DNA from: Synechococcus elongatus PCC 6301 | Lineage (GTDB): Bacteria; Cyanobacteriota; Cyanobacteriia; Synechococcales; Synechococcaceae | Direction: 5' to 3' | Length of the DNA stretch: 32,000 nucleotides | Assembly (NCBI RefSeq): GCF_000010065.1 | Contig: NC_006576.1 | Location: forward strand, 1,680,001-1,712,000 | Shown here: positions 13,622-26,033 of the stretch, piece by piece | How the letters are laid out: the number at the start of each line of letters is the position of its first letter | Position numbering within the stretch: the stretch's first letter is position 1 | Notes under the pieces: generated by a model | What the model saw: the letters and a program-made list of their open reading frames with translations, nothing else | Told to the model about the DNA's origin: nothing | The model's database searches: none | Made by a program: the position numbers and the translations under genes

Positions 13622-13695
13622 CGGGACTGACGGGGCTCGAACCCGCAACTTCCGCCGTGACAGGGCGGTGCTCTAACCGATTGAACTACAGTCCC
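13622..13695 (-). tRNA. tRNA-Asp (anticodon GUC)
   Basis: The minus strand reads GGGACTG TA GTTC AATCGGTTA GAGC A CCGCC CTGTCAC GGCGG AAGTT GCGGG TTCGAGC CCCGT CAGTCCC G. This folds into a full cloverleaf of 74 nt. CCA is not encoded. Confidence 0.9.
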
Positions 13696-13901: not shown

Positions 13902-13974
13902 CGCGCCCTGGAGGACTTGAACCCCCGACATCAGGTTTTGGAGACCTGCGTTCTACCAACTGAACTAAGAGCGC
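13902..13974 (-). tRNA. tRNA-Trp (anticodon CCA)
   Basis: The minus strand reads GCGCTCT TA GTTC AGTTGGTA GAAC G CAGGT CTCCAAA ACCTG ATGTC GGGGG TTCAAGT CCTCC AGGGCGC G. Length is 73 nt. Confidence 0.9.
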
Positions 13975-17159: not shown

Positions 17160-17693
17160 ATGAGTGCCGAGCGATCGCGATGGCTGCAGTGTTTGGGACT
17201 TCCTGCTACGGCTGACGCGATCGCGATCAAAACGGCTTACCGTCAGTTGGCGCGGCAGTGGCACCCCGATTGCAATCCCGATCCGCAAGCCACCGCTCGT
17301 TTTCAGGAGATCCAGATCGCCTACGAGCGGCTGTTAGTTCTGCAAGAATCCGCCACGGCTCAACCCGTTCCGCAAGCCCCCCCAGCGGATGCAGCTCTGA
17401 TTGCCCTCAAACGTCAGTTCCAGCCACAACTACAAGATCTGCTGGCGGATGGACGCTGGGCGAAGGCGATCGCCTTAACTGAAGCACTGCAACAACGCTT
17501 ACCCGACGATTGGGAAGTGCGTCAGTGGTTGGCAATCTGTTATCTCCGGCAAGGGCAAGCCTTGCTGGTTCAACAACAGCGACAGCAAGCGATCGTCTAC
17601 TTTGAGAAAGCGCGCCGCACCGATCCGCACAATCCACGCCTCCAACAAGAAATTCAAGCCAGCCATAGGCTGGCCTCAGCTCGGCGAGCCTGA
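17160..17693 (+). CDS. J-domain (DnaJ-like) protein with TPR-like C-terminal half
   Basis: The J-domain reads LGLPATADAIAIKTAYRQLARQWHPDCNPD..ARFQEIQIAYERL and includes the HPD motif. The helical repeat region contains WAKAIALTEAL and YLRQGQALLV. It starts 5 nt after the clpP3 stop. Confidence 0.75.
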   Translation: MSAERSRWLQCLGLPATADAIAIKTAYRQLARQWHPDCNPDPQATARFQEIQIAYERLLVLQESATAQPVPQAPPADAALIALKRQFQPQLQDLLADGRWAKAIALTEALQQRLPDDWEVRQWLAICYLRQGQALLVQQQRQQAIVYFEKARRTDPHNPRLQQEIQASHRLASARRA

Positions 17694-20600
17694 CGGATCT
17701 GGATTAACCGCGATTGCAGAGTCATCAGCGCTCATCAATTCGAATTTGCGCCAGCTGGGTTGATGTACCACGACGCAGTTACGGCCTGCAGCTTTGGCTT
17801 GGTAAAGACTGGTGTCAGCTGACTTGATCAACGTATCGCTCGCTAGCCCCGATTCTGGGAATGCAGCCACCCCAATTGAGATCGTGAGAGAGGGCAGCGT
17901 TTGCTCGTGATAGCTGATGATTAATTGAGCGATCGCCTGTCGAATTTGATCAGCCTTGCGAGCGCTGACTTCAAGGCTGGCTCCCGGCATTAAAATCGCA
18001 ATTTCTTCGCCACCAAAGCGACAGACCACATCTGAGGCACGAACTTGGTTAAGCAGGGCGCGAGCTACCTGTTTCAAGACCATATCGCCTGCATCGTGGC
18101 CAAACTCGTCGTTGAAACGCTTGAAGTAGTCAATATCCAGCATTAATATCCCGATGCTGTCACCACTGCGCTTGGCGCGGGCCAATTCCTGTTCAAAAAA
18201 TTCCTGCAGATAGCGGCGATTGAACAACCCTGTAAGCGGATCGCGCAGGTTCTCTTGGCGCAGGGTTTCTCGCAGTTGGAGGTTGGCAATTGCTAATGCA
18301 AGTTGCTCAGCGATGGTTTCAGCTAGAGGTGGGGCCTTGCTGTCCACACAGCTATTGTCATGTGTAACCATTTGTTCAAACTGTAGGTGCCCCAAAATCT
18401 CGCCGAAAGCGGCGAGCGGCAAGCAAAAAATGCTTTCTCCCGAGGAGATCTTGCCCTTGACGTGGGGGCAAGCTGGACTAAGCACTTGGTCCGGATCATA
18501 GAGATAGGGCGTACCACGGCGTAGAGCCCAACAATCGCTGAGCAAAAAAGACGGCTGAGTATGAACGGGTTGGCCCCATTCAACAATGGCTTGGAGCATT
18601 TCGAGCTTTCCATCCCGCTGGAGCAAACTCAGCTGACCGCGACAGTTAGGAAAGAGTTGGGGGAGAAATCCGGCAATTACTTGTCCTGCTTCAGCAACCG
18701 TGGAACAAGCCTGTAGAAAATCATTCAGCTGTCCCAGCAGTTGCATCTCCCGATTACGTTGATCGAGTTCTTGAATGCGCTCCTGCAACGCCAAGCCCAT
18801 TTCTTTGAGTGCTGTGATATCAATCGCTAGTCCTTGGACTAGCAGCGTTCCATCGACTGACAGCAACATCTCGCCTTGGTCGCGCACCCAAATGGTTTGG
18901 CCATCGCTGCGAATCATCCGATATTCAAAGCTGTAGGCTCGTTGTTCGGCGAGCGCGGCTTCAAACTGCTGTTGTATCTTGTCTAGGTCGTCTGGATGCA
19001 CAAACTGTTGCCACGTGTTGGCAAAGCCTGCATGCCACTGGGATTGATCAACTCCGAGCAAGGTTTCAATCTGAGGGCTGACATACCCCTTGTCCTGTAG
19101 AGCATTCGGCGAGAAACGATAGACCACCCCCGGATTCTTCTCGATCAGAAGACGGGCTTGCTCTTCGGCCTGGGCTAAACGTAATTCTGTAGCTTTGCGA
19201 TCGGTGATATCGATCGCACTGCCGATGAGTCGCACCACCTGACCTTCAGCATTACGAACGGCTTCGCCTTGTCCACTGACCCAGTGAATGCTGCCATCAG
19301 CCCAAGTCACACGAAAGTCGATGGAATAAGGAGTTCCTTGTTGGATGCATCTCTGCACATTTCTAAGCCAGTAGTCGCGATCGAGGGGATGAATTTGCTG
19401 TAGATGTTCCTCAAAGCTGGGTACGGGCTCACTGGGGTTCATCCCAAACAAACGAAACAGTTGAGGCGACCATTCAATTGTTTGGGTGACAACCTCAAAG
19501 GCCCAACTGCCAACCTTGGCGACGCGCTGAGCCGTTTCGAGCTGATCGCGAATCGACTCCAGTTCGGTGGTACGGATCTGCACTAAATGCTCAAGATTTT
19601 CGCTGAGATCCCGTAGCTGGCGATCAGTGTGTGCACGCTCGGTGACATCAATCACTGTACTTAAAACTAGTGATCGTCCTTCGGCGTCTGGCCCGAGAGC
19701 GGAGGAATAAAAATCCCAAGTCCGCAGCGCTCCCGAGCGAGTTTGAATGACAAATTCCCCATTCGCCTGCCGTTGACCGGGCGGCATCGCATAAACTTCC
19801 TCTGCGATGCGTAACACTTCTGCTACCTTCTCTGGGCCATAGACTTTTTCGAACCAACTTTCAACGGTGGGCGTGTCTTCAAGTTCATAACCACTTAATT
19901 CCCGCCAAGCTTCGTTGACCTCTAAGATGCAACCGTCACTGCGATAGAGCACCATCGGCTGAGGGGCTTGCATGACAATTTGTCGGAAACGCCGCTGGAT
20001 CTCTTGGGCTGCTTGGAGTGCGGTCAACAGTTTTTCTTCTTGCTGATTGAGCGATCGCGCAACAACCCAAAGAAGTGCGACTAGCAGACTGGTCGTAATC
20101 GGTGCCACGAGGCCGTCACTGACCACGGGGGTGACCGATAAGTACTGTTGGCTCAAAAACTTGAGACCGCGTAACAGCAGCGGTAATACAAAGAGCCAAG
20201 GCAACAGAGTCCGACTCAGTCGCCCCCCAAGCGAAGGACTACTCAGAATTGCTAGCAATCCCCGTTGGGGGTGGAAGCTGAGAGCCCCAATGCTGAGCAC
20301 TAAGAACCCCACAACCGTGTTAGAGGCGATCGCACTTTGGCGGTCGAGGAATAGATAAAAAGCATTGATGCCGAGTAAATAGCCAAAAAGGCCAAGCATT
20401 GCAATCCACCCGGCAATCAAAGCAAGACTCTGGCTACAGATCACTCGTGGTTCTCTCTGACTGCGAGCACAGCTGAGAGAAGCGGTCAGCAGTAAAAACG
20501 AGATTGCAGCTTGATCACTCATCCGACCCGGCAGGCCAGACCCCACTGGGGAAATGCGATCGCGAACCAGCAGTTCATCCAGCCCTAGATTCCAGCCCGT

Positions 20601-20882
20601 GACATATTGCAGCATGGTCAAGCTGGTGATCGTAGCGACTAGTAATAGACAAACGCGGTGCCATTGCTGCTGCCAACGCACCCTTGACTGCGCCCAGATC
20701 AATGCCCAACCGCTGAGGATAAAGCAGAAAGCCGTGTTGACCTTCATTGTGTTGGCACTGCCCGGCAGCAGCATCGTTAGTGCTGGACTACTGATTGCCC
20801 AGCCCAAGAGCACGATGAGCCCGAGGGTGATTGCCAAGAAGCCACAGAGTCGAGGGAGTGACAGCCAAACCCGTAATCGCAT
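17676..20882 (-). CDS. membrane-bound multi-sensor diguanylate cyclase (polytopic N-domain, 3 PAS/PAC, GAF, GGDEF)
   Basis: The first ~330 aa contain multiple hydrophobic helices. PAS/PAC-like repeats follow (WSPQLFRLFG, YRMIRSDGQTIWV and others), then a GAF domain. The GGDEF domain reads DPLTGLFNRRY..DIDYFKRFNDEFGHDAGD..RASDVVCRFGGEEI, with an RxxD I-site and the active-site variant GGEEI. The ORF-track start at 20987 is TTG. The ATG at 20882 (MRLRVWLSL) is preferred. Confidence 0.85.
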   Translation of the reverse strand: MRLRVWLSLPRLCGFLAITLGLIVLLGWAISSPALTMLLPGSANTMKVNTAFCFILSGWALIWAQSRVRWQQQWHRVCLLLVATITSLTMLQYVTGWNLGLDELLVRDRISPVGSGLPGRMSDQAAISFLLLTASLSCARSQREPRVICSQSLALIAGWIAMLGLFGYLLGINAFYLFLDRQSAIASNTVVGFLVLSIGALSFHPQRGLLAILSSPSLGGRLSRTLLPWLFVLPLLLRGLKFLSQQYLSVTPVVSDGLVAPITTSLLVALLWVVARSLNQQEEKLLTALQAAQEIQRRFRQIVMQAPQPMVLYRSDGCILEVNEAWRELSGYELEDTPTVESWFEKVYGPEKVAEVLRIAEEVYAMPPGQRQANGEFVIQTRSGALRTWDFYSSALGPDAEGRSLVLSTVIDVTERAHTDRQLRDLSENLEHLVQIRTTELESIRDQLETAQRVAKVGSWAFEVVTQTIEWSPQLFRLFGMNPSEPVPSFEEHLQQIHPLDRDYWLRNVQRCIQQGTPYSIDFRVTWADGSIHWVSGQGEAVRNAEGQVVRLIGSAIDITDRKATELRLAQAEEQARLLIEKNPGVVYRFSPNALQDKGYVSPQIETLLGVDQSQWHAGFANTWQQFVHPDDLDKIQQQFEAALAEQRAYSFEYRMIRSDGQTIWVRDQGEMLLSVDGTLLVQGLAIDITALKEMGLALQERIQELDQRNREMQLLGQLNDFLQACSTVAEAGQVIAGFLPQLFPNCRGQLSLLQRDGKLEMLQAIVEWGQPVHTQPSFLLSDCWALRRGTPYLYDPDQVLSPACPHVKGKISSGESIFCLPLAAFGEILGHLQFEQMVTHDNSCVDSKAPPLAETIAEQLALAIANLQLRETLRQENLRDPLTGLFNRRYLQEFFEQELARAKRSGDSIGILMLDIDYFKRFNDEFGHDAGDMVLKQVARALLNQVRASDVVCRFGGEEIAILMPGASLEVSARKADQIRQAIAQLIISYHEQTLPSLTISIGVAAFPESGLASDTLIKSADTSLYQAKAAGRNCVVVHQPSWRKFELMSADDSAIAVNPDPSGSPS

Positions 20883-21074
20883 GAACTGCTCAAAGCCCAA
20901 AACAAAGGGGCTAGCACCTCCTCTTCTAGTATCTTGAGCTCCACCTTGATTGCTCGGCTTTTTTACAATGCCCAACAGAAATCCCAAGGCAGGTCTTAAT
21001 CTATAGAGAGCAGCCCAAACTAGTTATTCCCTAGTGTGGTATCTGATTGTTTAATTTGTTGAGCTAACTGTTCT

Positions 21075-22391
21075 GTGCCACCCTCGCGCGACTCACGCCA
21101 TCCTTGGCCGGCAGCTAGTCGATGGATGCTGGGACTGGCGGCAGGGCTCGTCGTCGCTTGCTTGCTCGCGATTTTGAAGCCCGGTTCTGGCTGGTTGTTT
21201 TTGGCCAGTGGACTTGCCTCTGTTAGCGTAGCGTCTTTCCTCCAGGCAGCCAGTGATCGGCGCTACCTCGACGATCTGAGCCATCGCTATGAGCAGTTGC
21301 ATGATGAGAAAGAAATACTAGAGGAAAACTATCAGAAACAACTCGCCCAAGAGCGCATCCTACTAGACATTACCCTCAATATTCGTCAGTCGCTTAACCT
21401 CAGCCAAGTGATGGAGACCGCGGTCTCAGAAGTGCGATCGCTTCTGCGTGTCAATCGTGTCTTAATCTATCAATTTCAGCCTGACTGGCGTGGTCTGATC
21501 GTTGCTGAATCAGTATCTGAGCCGGAATTCTCGCTGATGGGAATTCAGATTGAAGATTATTGCTTTGCCAATAACTGGGACCAGCAGTATCGTGATGGTT
21601 ATATCCATCAAATTGACCACGTTGCCATTGCTGGATTAGATGACTGCTATCGTCGGTTGTTGCAATCGATCAAGGTAAAAGCCAATTTGGTTTTGCCGAT
21701 TCGCTACGGTGATAGCCTGTGGGGCTTATTAGCTGCTCATCACTGTATTCTGCCGCGGACTTGGCGTAATAGTGAAGTCGTATTGCTGACCCAAGTTGCC
21801 GAACAGCTGAGTATTGCGATCGCTCAATCGCAGTTGCTGAAAACCTTGCAAGTAACGAACCAGAGATTGCAGGATCAGGTGCGCATTGACGGCCTGACTC
21901 AAATTCCCAATCGCCGCCGCTTTGATGAGTATTTCAACGATGTTTGGCTATGGGGCTGTCGTGATCACACGCCTGTGGCCTTACTGCTGATCGATGTTGA
22001 TTACTTCAAAACCTATAACGATTTTTACGGGCATTTGGCCGGTGATGAAGTCCTGCGAAAAATTGGTTTATTGCTGAATTCGGTCGTTTTGCGAGCTACA
22101 GATCTGGTCGCTCGCTACGGGGGCGAAGAATTTGTCGCTGTTCTGCCAAGCACGACTCTCGAGGGAGCCCAAGCGGTGGCACGACGGTTACAAGCAGATT
22201 TACAGCGGTTGCAGATCCCACACAATCATTCGCCAGTTGCCGCTTGGGTGACAGTCAGTATTGGTATTGCGGTCACCATTCCCACGATTGATGTTGCATT
22301 AACGGACCTGATTGATCAGGCAGATAAGGCTTTGTACGAGGCGAAATCAGCAGGCCGCAATTGCATTATGTGGGCGGAGTCTTTGGCTTGA
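21075..22391 (+). CDS. diguanylate cyclase with two N-terminal TM helices, a coiled coil and a phytochrome/cyanobacteriochrome-class GAF domain
   Basis: The GAF reads RVLIYQFQPDWRGLIVAES..IEDYCF..YRDGYIHQIDHVAIAGLDDCYRRLLQSIKVKANLVLPI..LWGLLAAHHC. The GGDEF reads DGLTQIPNRRRF..DVDYFKTYNDFYGHLAGD..RATDLVARYGGEEF. The start at 21075 is GTG, with an alternative ATG at 21126. Confidence 0.85.
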   Translation: MPPSRDSRHPWPAASRWMLGLAAGLVVACLLAILKPGSGWLFLASGLASVSVASFLQAASDRRYLDDLSHRYEQLHDEKEILEENYQKQLAQERILLDITLNIRQSLNLSQVMETAVSEVRSLLRVNRVLIYQFQPDWRGLIVAESVSEPEFSLMGIQIEDYCFANNWDQQYRDGYIHQIDHVAIAGLDDCYRRLLQSIKVKANLVLPIRYGDSLWGLLAAHHCILPRTWRNSEVVLLTQVAEQLSIAIAQSQLLKTLQVTNQRLQDQVRIDGLTQIPNRRRFDEYFNDVWLWGCRDHTPVALLLIDVDYFKTYNDFYGHLAGDEVLRKIGLLLNSVVLRATDLVARYGGEEFVAVLPSTTLEGAQAVARRLQADLQRLQIPHNHSPVAAWVTVSIGIAVTIPTIDVALTDLIDQADKALYEAKSAGRNCIMWAESLA

Positions 22392-22407: not shown

Positions 22408-22788
22408 TCAGGGTTGCTCGGTCGACTGTCGACCGAGGGCATAGACCCCGCAGGCGATCGAAGCAACCATGCCAAGACTTAAACCCCAGCTGTGTCCTAG
22501 GCTCACCTCCACACCCCAATCGCAAACACCACCCAAGACCAACAGGGGAAGGGTACTGATAATTGAGGCATAGAGCAGATTGACCGATTCCCGGGCTTCC
22601 CGCGATCGCTCGTACTCGGTGGTCGATGTGTAGAGAGAGCGATCGGCTTCTCCTAGCCAATGGGCAAGCTGCTGACTGAGTCGGCGGGTGACTGGCGCTA
22701 GGGCAAAGTAGAGCGCAATTGCCCAGAGAGCGGCTGCGGCCACACTGACCGCATCAAAGGGAAACAGCGATCGCAGGAAGAGAAACAT
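22408..22788 (-). CDS. hypothetical integral membrane protein
   Basis: This 126-aa ORF has about 3 hydrophobic helices (AAAALWAIALYFALAP, IISTLPLLVLGGV, LSLGMVASIACGVYAL). It has a clean ATG. No family was recognised. Confidence 0.5.
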   Translation of the reverse strand: MFLFLRSLFPFDAVSVAAAALWAIALYFALAPVTRRLSQQLAHWLGEADRSLYTSTTEYERSREARESVNLLYASIISTLPLLVLGGVCDWGVEVSLGHSWGLSLGMVASIACGVYALGRQSTEQP

Positions 22789-25403: not shown

Positions 25404-25748
25404 GATTATTTGACTCCAGGTCGGGTTTAAGCCTCCACCTCGACAGGATTCATTCCACCGGAATGAACACCCGAACGTCGAAGTGTGCGATTTGACACTT
25501 TTTCTAGGGTAGCACTTGGGCGCGATCGCAGGCGATGACCTGACTACAGCGATCGCGTGACAGATGGGACGGTATCTCCAGACAAGCGCTAGGAATGTGC
25601 TTCAGAAAACAGCCACAAATTCCGTAGCATTTGCTACAGTTTAAGGGCGAGGGTAATCGTTGGCCCAGTTTATCTGGGTGGAAGTAAGGTCTTTGGCCTG
25701 AAGCAACGCGCCTCTCAATGTCAAACAAAGTTGAGACGCGTACCCAAA

Positions 25749-26033
25749 ATGGAACTGACATACCGCGGGATTAAATATCCCTACACCCCCCCGACCGTCG
25801 CTTCGGCACCGAGCAGCATCTATACCGAATACAAAGGTCTCGATCTGCGCTTCCGCTCTAAAGAAGAACCCGTGCAACCGCTGAAAGTTGAAATGGCTCA
25901 GGCCAAACCGGCAACTTCAGCAAATCCAACGGAAGAAAAACTGGTGAGTCATCTCTACCGCCACGCCCTGCGTAGCTTGCAGCGGCAACAGCAAAAATCG
26001 ATGCGGGCCAAACAAGAGCTGCAGTTTGGCTAA
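25749..26033 (+). CDS. DUF4278-like small protein
   Basis: MELTYRGIKYPYTPPTV matches the M-x-L-x-YRG-x-x-Y N-terminus of the cyanobacterial DUF4278 family (from memory). The ORF-track start at 25731 is TTG, and the ATG at 25749 is preferred. A strong terminator follows. Confidence 0.6.
   Translation: MELTYRGIKYPYTPPTVASAPSSIYTEYKGLDLRFRSKEEPVQPLKVEMAQAKPATSANPTEEKLVSHLYRHALRSLQRQQQKSMRAKQELQFG

Follow-up and report, generated by a model that had tools for sequence, protein, structure and literature searches.

The 32,000-nucleotide stretch of Synechococcus elongatus PCC 6301 DNA on NC_006576.1 (positions 1,680,001 to 1,712,000, here called the window) was analysed around a gene that encodes a GAF domain directly upstream of a GGDEF diguanylate cyclase domain. 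The GAF domain is well supported, by alignment and modelling, as a cyanobacteriochrome (CBCR)-type domain of the DXCF lineage with both of its cysteines in register. The original prediction had described it as an atypical DXCF-type CBCR GAF, carrying Cys-Tyr instead of Cys-His and driving a GGDEF output. The open reading frame (ORF), the domains and the residues were found as described there. The region 21357-21842 corresponds to residues 95-256 and is a GAF domain, all the quoted peptide strings are present, and the two cysteine codons (21561-21563 and 21645-21647) lie within the motifs read from the DNA. The features of the gene and of the rest of the window are collected in Table 1. The structural model was obtained with AlphaFold2 using a 27-sequence alignment (A1) as input, and it reached a mean predicted local distance difference test score (pLDDT) of 84.8, with the GAF and GGDEF domains mostly above 85. 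Hydrophobic segments by the Kyte-Doolittle scale at about residues 16-36 and 38-59 fit two transmembrane segments, and in the model the coiled-coil continuation of the second helix leads into the GAF domain. Neither of the N-terminal transmembrane helices had been mentioned in the original prediction.

Table 1. Features of the cyclase gene and of the remaining window (positions are those of the window)
Feature	Coordinates	Strand	Basis or remark
Whole gene: transmembrane-transmembrane-coiled coil-GAF-signalling helix-GGDEF, 438 aa	21075..22391	+	ORF list; coordinates include the stop codon
Predicted transmembrane helix 1, residues 14-34	21114..21176	+	AlphaFold2 helix 14-34; Kyte-Doolittle 19-residue windows >1.9
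Predicted transmembrane helix 2 (~residues 39-58) and long helix/coiled coil to 105	21189..21389	+	AlphaFold2 helix 39-105
CBCR-type GAF, residues 108-250	21396..21824	+	Pfam GAF residues 108-249, E 7.7e-19
DXCF motif D161-Y162-C163-F164	21555..21566	+	Codons gat-tat-tgc-ttt; aligned to TePixJ D492-P-C494-F495
Lineage-specific segment Y176-I-H-Q-I-D-H-V-A184	21600..21626	+	Family consensus R-[IV]-x-A-[IV]-x-[DN]-I-Y
Canonical (predicted) bilin-attachment Cys191 and Tyr192 ('CY' motif)	21645..21650	+	Codons tgc-tat; aligned to TePixJ C522-H523
H222-H223-C224	21738..21746	+	H222 = TePixJ H553 equivalent; C224 = third conserved cysteine (codon 21744-21746)
Signalling helix GAF to GGDEF, residues 232-269	21768..21881	+	AlphaFold2 continuous helix
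GGDEF diguanylate cyclase domain, residues 271-429	21885..22361	+	Pfam GGDEF, E 1.3e-50
I-site R340-A-T-D343 (RxxD product-inhibition site)	22092..22103	+	Sequence reading; aligned to WspR RSSD
Active-site motif G349-G-E-E-F353	22119..22133	+	Sequence reading; invariant in alignment A1
Divergent PAS-GGDEF ORF, 1103 aa (1068 aa as called elsewhere)	17676-20987	-	Hydrophobic N-terminal region, several PAS, GGDEF
126-aa hydrophobic ORF, no Pfam match	22408-22788	-	Convergent with the cyclase gene; gap of 16 bp to that gene's stop codon
Glutamine riboswitch aptamer	25656-25712	+	Rfam RF01739, 43.8 bits (exceeds the gathering score)
Two tRNA genes	13622-13695 and 13902-13974	-	Rfam RF00005, 67 bits each; ~200 bp apart

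The GAF domain was compared with all PDB chains using phmmer. The top matches were all bilin-binding CBCR GAF domains, with E values from 1e-39 to 1e-24. The best solved sequence relative was PPHK (6oap, E 1.6e-39), and the matches included the Pg-state GAF of RcaE (8k9o, E 6.8e-30), miRFP670nano (6mgh, E 1.7e-29), NpR6012g4 (6bhn, E 1.6e-28) and TePixJ (3vv4, E 1.9e-27). TePixJ was the sole DXCF-type structure among them and aligned over 145 residues with zero gaps, placing IEDYCF over IEDPCF and AGLDDCYRRL over AGLTECHLNQL. In this register C163 lies on TePixJ C494 and C191 on C522, Y192 faces H523, and the spacing from the DXCF Asp to the canonical Cys is 30 residues in both proteins. C191 was also aligned to the corresponding Cys of PPHK and to C86 of miRFP670nano and is invariant in alignment A1, while the DXCF motif is kept in all four orthologs. 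Superposition of the modelled GAF by Foldseek gave a root-mean-square deviation (RMSD) of 1.2 A over 143 columns on TePixJ (4glq) and likewise 1.2 A on miRFP670nano, with target-normalised TM-scores of 0.92-0.95 for the two structures. The gap-free alignment and the superposition bear out the earlier assignment of both cysteines to the DXCF and canonical positions, and Cys163 is the predicted second, reversible cysteine that forms the C10 adduct.

The contents of the pocket are in accordance with this register. The TePixJ chromophore contacts kept in the PCC 6301 protein are D161, F164, Y172, L196, N204 and H222, of which L196 is equivalent to the TePixJ Leu527 position (PMC7504144). The tryptophan equivalent to W168, TePixJ W499, hydrogen-bonds the B-ring propionate (PMC6955287). 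In the Pb state of TePixJ an Asn and a His are the ligands of the D-ring carbonyl (PMC9945933); these two are probably N535 and H553, to which N204 and H222 align. The hallmark residues R128, E145, D161, C163, F164, Y172, G175, C191, L196, N204, P208, H222, C224, R228 and W230 are all retained. Column frequencies were computed over 231 DXCF GAF domains, and Tyr172, Asn204, His222, Cys224, Arg228 and Trp230 were each the majority residue at their positions (85-100%). A separate observation concerns the third cysteine, C224. Its motif is A-H-[QH]-C, where it lies two residues past the predicted D-ring His, and a cysteine of this type was present in 229 of the 231 DXCF domains and in only about one third of non-DXCF CBCR-like GAF domains.

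The output domain was examined for its catalytic residues. Besides the GGEEF motif at residues 349-353, the metal-binding D307-x-D309 and the residues K312, N315, D316, D324, K424 and R428 are present, and these are invariant across the 27 aligned sequences. The RxxD I-site stands five residues upstream of GGEEF. The best solved relative of the domain is WspR (3bre, E 7.5e-43). Both the GGDEF active site and the I-site are intact as read from the sequence, and the protein is a predicted diguanylate cyclase. The earlier statement that the GAF drives a GGDEF output holds at the sequence level, the GAF being followed directly by a GGDEF domain with intact catalytic residues. W230 and D272 are 42 residues apart in 23 of the 27 homologs; the distance is 35 in three others and 63 in the last, so that the linker lengths differ only by whole heptads (steps of 7 and 21 residues). 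Such a heptad-quantised linker fits a register-sensitive coiled-coil transducer, or signalling helix, and the best whole-chain Foldseek match of the model was IsPadC (5llw, E 3e-23).

The original prediction had treated the His after the canonical Cys as normally invariant, and its replacement by Tyr as the feature that makes this GAF atypical. The frequency of Cys-Tyr was therefore surveyed among relatives. An earlier word-indexed homology search with the GAF alone gave 7 matches, too few for statistics, and an exhaustive HMMER search against 1.84 billion representative proteins was used instead, which returned 7,227 matches at E<=1e-3. The sample comprised every GAF domain of the top 150 proteins together with the earlier matches, and 604 domains spanned both motifs. 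Cys-His was found in 139 domains with the DXCF motif and in 147 without it, and Cys-Tyr in 103 with the motif and 36 without. Of the 242 DXCF-type domains, 103 (43%) thus have Tyr directly after the canonical Cys, an exact percentage that may not extend to all CBCRs since the sample consists of the best-scoring relatives of the window protein. When only representative sequences were counted, the DXCF domains were divided into 91 with Cys-Tyr and 114 with Cys-His. Overall, Cys-Tyr occurred in 139 of the 425 Cys-bearing domains, and it was commoner in DXCF than in other CBCR-like GAF domains (odds ratio 3.0, p 5e-7). At least one DXCF domain with Cys-Tyr was present in 64 distinct proteins, 21 of which also carry a DXCF domain with Cys-His in the same chain.

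The canonical Cys was retained equally beside either residue (139/157 next to Tyr, 286/321 next to His), which argues that Cys-Tyr pockets are under the same constraint as Cys-His pockets. By Fitch parsimony on a neighbour-joining tree of the 231 DXCF domains, at least 37 changes between His and Tyr are required, compared to 74.5 for shuffled states, and no other alignment column differed strongly between the two classes. Several of the DXCF domains with Cys-Tyr belong to PixJ-type chemotaxis (phototaxis) receptors. Ten proteins were looked up, nine of them with such a domain; all came from metagenomes or metagenome-assembled genomes, several were named PixJ, and none of the ten was a model-organism protein that could be linked to published spectra. 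Outside the DXCF lineage there are precedents for the motif. NpF2164g5 carries it naturally and binds bilin covalently (PMC9378818), and in miRFP670nano the engineered H87Y places Tyr in parallel pi-stacking on the bilin, again with covalent binding (PMC6336887). The frequency of Cys-Tyr, its repeated switching and these precedents contradict both the supposed invariance of the His and the label 'atypical' in so far as it rests on Cys-Tyr. The Cys-His motif is absent here (Tyr192), yet that motif is not defining in practice, and Cys-Tyr is a common natural variant that is evolutionarily labile in DXCF domains. The literature search found no account of His and Tyr as alternatives beside the canonical Cys in two-Cys CBCRs, and none of the solved structures matched by the GAF in the PDB search is a DXCF domain with Cys-Tyr.

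Selection on the sensor was estimated from the ratio of nonsynonymous to synonymous substitution rates (dN/dS, Nei-Gojobori) against a 90%-identical ortholog, region by region. The ratio was 0.039 for the GAF (dS 0.93), 0.063 for the linker plus GGDEF (dS 0.83) and 0.106 for the N-terminal region (dS 1.08). Protein identity of the GAF to three orthologs was 93%, 77% and 72%, and that of the GGDEF domain 90%, 79% and 68%. In four orthologs that reach down to 68% identity every pocket residue is unchanged, Y176, H178 and Y192 among them. Purifying selection on the GAF is strong; the domain is more constrained than the rest of the protein and is not decaying.

Taken together, the protein is most probably a dimeric, membrane-anchored diguanylate cyclase gated by the photocycle of a DXCF-type two-Cys CBCR GAF, a reading to which we assign a probability of about 0.6. 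Homology, cysteine register, catalytic residues and purifying selection were observed; from them we infer bilin binding, the colours of the photocycle and the sign of regulation. In the proposed mechanism Cys191 would bind phycocyanobilin covalently at ring A, and the bilin would possibly be isomerised to phycoviolobilin. In the dark state Cys163 would form an adduct at the bilin C10 and so produce a violet/blue-absorbing form, and light-driven 15Z/15E isomerisation would release this second thioether to give a green/teal-absorbing form. The change would pass via the continuous heptad-phased helix of residues 232-269 to the GGDEF pair and switch synthesis of c-di-GMP, the cyclic dimer of GMP, while the I-site would add product inhibition and limit the output. 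Tyr192 would stack on the bilin as in miRFP670nano, tuning colour, fluorescence or photoconversion yield with binding not abolished. The published determinants of phycocyanobilin-to-phycoviolobilin isomerisation (PMC11284453) were also considered and set aside, as they concern positions of the red/green lineage and yield no prediction for this GAF. A DXCF-lineage GAF upstream of an intact GGDEF domain makes a light-gated c-di-GMP synthase comparable to SesA or Cph2 the natural reading, so this part of the original prediction stands; the unusual pocket that it ascribed to Cys-Tyr does not.

Several observations weigh against a standard photocycle. In the segment before the Cys helix the window protein reads G-Y-I-H-Q-I-D-H-V-A, departing from the DXCF consensus G-R-[IV]-x-A-x-x-[DN]-I-Y. 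The departures are R176Y (family Arg 81%, Tyr 3%), A179Q (Ala 74%, Gln 1.3%), D/N182H (Asp/Asn 98%, His 1.3%) and Y184A (Tyr 61%, Ala 2.6%), to which D127N is added elsewhere in the domain (Asp 95%). Asn167 takes the place of TePixJ H498, which is a B-ring propionate ligand. The literature search found no spectroscopically characterised DXCF domain with Cys-Tyr, only Cys-Tyr examples of the red/green lineage, and in two of these, NpF2164g5 and miRFP670nano, the motif accompanies loss of detectable photoconversion and high fluorescence (PMC9378818). A residue other than Arg at 176 together with one other than Asp/Asn at 182 was found, among the 231 DXCF domains, only in the four S. elongatus-clade orthologs (P0001-P0004). 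The truly unusual feature of this lineage is the reshaped segment before the Cys helix with D127N, rather than Cys-Tyr. The Arg-to-Tyr change was already visible in the consensus string given with the original prediction and had not been flagged there. An interpretation of R176Y as loss of the B-ring propionate anchor was considered and weakened: the residues that bind this propionate in TePixJ are H498 and W499, and in the crystal R507, the equivalent of residue 176, contacts no propionate except that of a neighbouring molecule (PMC6955287).

The Cys-Tyr precedents suggest a different explanation, in which bilin is bound covalently by a GAF with little or no photochemistry, locked and fluorescent through stacking of Tyr192. 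The output of the cyclase would in that case depend on how much bilin is available, on thiol/redox state (through Cys163 and Cys224) or on light intensity, not on colour. This explanation, which we regard as unlikely, draws on the absent photoconversion and high fluorescence of NpF2164g5 and miRFP670nano (PMC9378818, PMC6336887), on the additional lineage-specific pocket changes and on the conservation of three cysteines. Against it, photoconversion persists in the engineered C448S_CY variant of SPI1085g3, Cys-Tyr stands in 43% of DXCF domains, including those of PixJ-type phototaxis receptors, which would be hard to square with photosensing being lost in general, and His and Tyr have replaced each other repeatedly on the tree without large co-varying changes. 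A related proposal, also tentative and of low probability, is that Tyr192 and the rebuilt pocket edge (Y176, H178, Q179, H182, A184 and N127) together make a non-standard DXCF CBCR and that, more broadly, the choice of His or Tyr may act as a general natural tuning switch. Such a domain might, for example, be photochemically locked and fluorescent and sense thiols or bilin, or its colour pair or dark reversion might be unusual.

More doubtful still is a GAF that no longer binds bilin and serves as a degenerate CBCR-derived dimerisation or transmission module, or binds another ligand, with the membrane anchor or feedback at the I-site providing the regulation: the rare substitutions at the conserved positions R176, D/N182, A179 and Y184 and the precedent of S. 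elongatus CikA, whose CBCR-like GAF has no bilin-binding Cys, speak for it, but both cysteines and D161, F164, Y172, N204, H222 and W230 are kept, the dN/dS of the GAF is the lowest of the three regions, and the TePixJ equivalent of residue 176 is not an essential in-cis ligand (PMC6955287). The original prediction had offered a degenerate non-photoactive relative as its alternative, and the low dN/dS makes this less likely, though it is still a rival to the photocycle-gated cyclase.

The extent of the gene was also considered. The 438-aa reading frame starts at a GTG codon, whereas public gene models give 421 aa from ATG 21126 (+), which is Met18. The 421-aa cluster representative P0001 is 100% identical to the window protein from Met18 on and is recorded on 294 contigs. 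The 17 codons 5' of Met18, counted from GTG 21075, encode VPPSRDSRHPWPAASRW (window 21075-21128 with the Met18 codon). An in-frame extension of the VPPSRDSRHPWPAASRW type (PWPxASRW) with the GTG start is kept in two lineages, L082 (90% identical) and L084 (68% identical), and the public start codon is therefore probably mis-set. In the L084 ortholog the called start is the equivalent GTG directly after a stop codon, and Val occupies the Met18 position. The closest relative with a name is that of Synechococcus elongatus IITB7 (76% identity), and the scan of genome contigs gave no S. elongatus locus, its best matches being GAF-GGDEF genes of Nostoc type at 44-47% identity. Orthologs are recognised within the S. 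elongatus clade, and the Nostoc-type genes are taken as homologs only. Promoter and terminator scans around the cyclase gene gave sites no more numerous than in shuffled sequence.

The locus was then related to that of strain PCC 7942. The window gene is probably Synpcc7942_2534, and the gene order of the PCC 7942 locus tags from about 2530 to 2538 fits the neighbourhood of the cyclase gene. This comprises clpP/clpR-like genes, a DnaJ-TPR gene, the divergent 1068-1103-aa PAS-GGDEF gene, the cyclase gene itself, the 126-aa ORF, a hydrolase gene, tsf and rpsB. A 2026 paper counts Synpcc7942_2534 (GAF+GGDEF) among the two proteins of PCC 7942 with a pigment-binding GAF (PMC13197396); the literature search found this protein in passing mention only, and no biochemical or genetic study of it. 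The divergent ORF carries a second intact GGDEF domain and is probably Synpcc7942_2535, a diguanylate cyclase homolog that a transcriptome mention reports as up-regulated in biofilm-forming sigF1 and pilB mutants (PMC11345509). The two cyclase genes are syntenic, with a short shared intergenic region, in both lineages whose upstream flank is visible (L001 and L082). At the position of the convergent ORF a gene is called in three lineages, with 126 aa in L001, 126 aa in L082 and 123 aa in L084. Elsewhere in the window, the glutamine riboswitch lies directly 5' of a small DUF4278 ORF (25731-26033).

The protein adds an uncharacterised member to a known class; it is not a new kind of system. The mildly interesting points are the clade-specific pocket segment and the unexplored matter of how often Cys-Tyr occurs in two-Cys CBCRs. 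Circadian rhythms, biofilms and, in UTEX 3055, phototaxis are subjects for which S. elongatus serves as a leading model. If the protein is indeed a colour-regulated c-di-GMP synthase, it would be the obvious light input to this organism's c-di-GMP network, a network recently found to shift both the period and the phase of the circadian rhythm (PMC13001216). The frequency and lability of Cys-Tyr in DXCF domains may help spectral tuning and the engineering of fluorescent CBCRs.

Among known systems, TePixJ (Thermosynechococcus Tll0569; 3vv4, 4glq) is the prototype DXCF blue/green CBCR, and the window GAF shares 36% identity and the same fold with it. The DXCF Asp, Cys and Phe are common to both, as are the pairs W499/W168, Y503/Y172, Leu527/L196, Asn535/N204 and His553/H222 (TePixJ residue first). 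The differences are His523 to Tyr192, His498 to Asn167, Arg507 to Tyr176, Asp513 to His182 and Phe515 to Ala184, and the output is HAMP-MCP in TePixJ and GGDEF here. The CBCR domain of PPHK (Leptolyngbya JSC-1, 6oap) is 38-39% identical to the window GAF and superposes with an RMSD of 1.7-2.0 A; it reads D-Q-Y-F without the second Cys, has Cys-His, and is partnered with REC and histidine kinase domains. NpF2164g5 and miRFP670nano share the Tyr after the canonical Cys, but they belong to red/green-type lineages without the DXCF Cys, and neither shows detectable photoconversion. IsPadC, a bacteriophytochrome-activated diguanylate cyclase, likewise has a bilin-sensor GAF coupled to a GGDEF dimer through a coiled-coil helix; its sensor is a full PAS-GAF-PHY unit with biliverdin, in contrast to the stand-alone CBCR GAF of the window protein. 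A similar architecture is found in the cyanobacterial proteins SesA (Tlr0924) and Cph2 (GAF3-GGDEF), where, as in the window protein, a DXCF-type GAF lies directly upstream of GGDEF. SesA and Cph2 GAF3-GGDEF are soluble, have PAS or further GAF domains and carry Cys-His. The window protein differs, in a comparison made by description only, in its two transmembrane helices, its single GAF and its Cys-Tyr. In both SesA and Cph2, blue light raises c-di-GMP (PMC13001216, PMC7690835).

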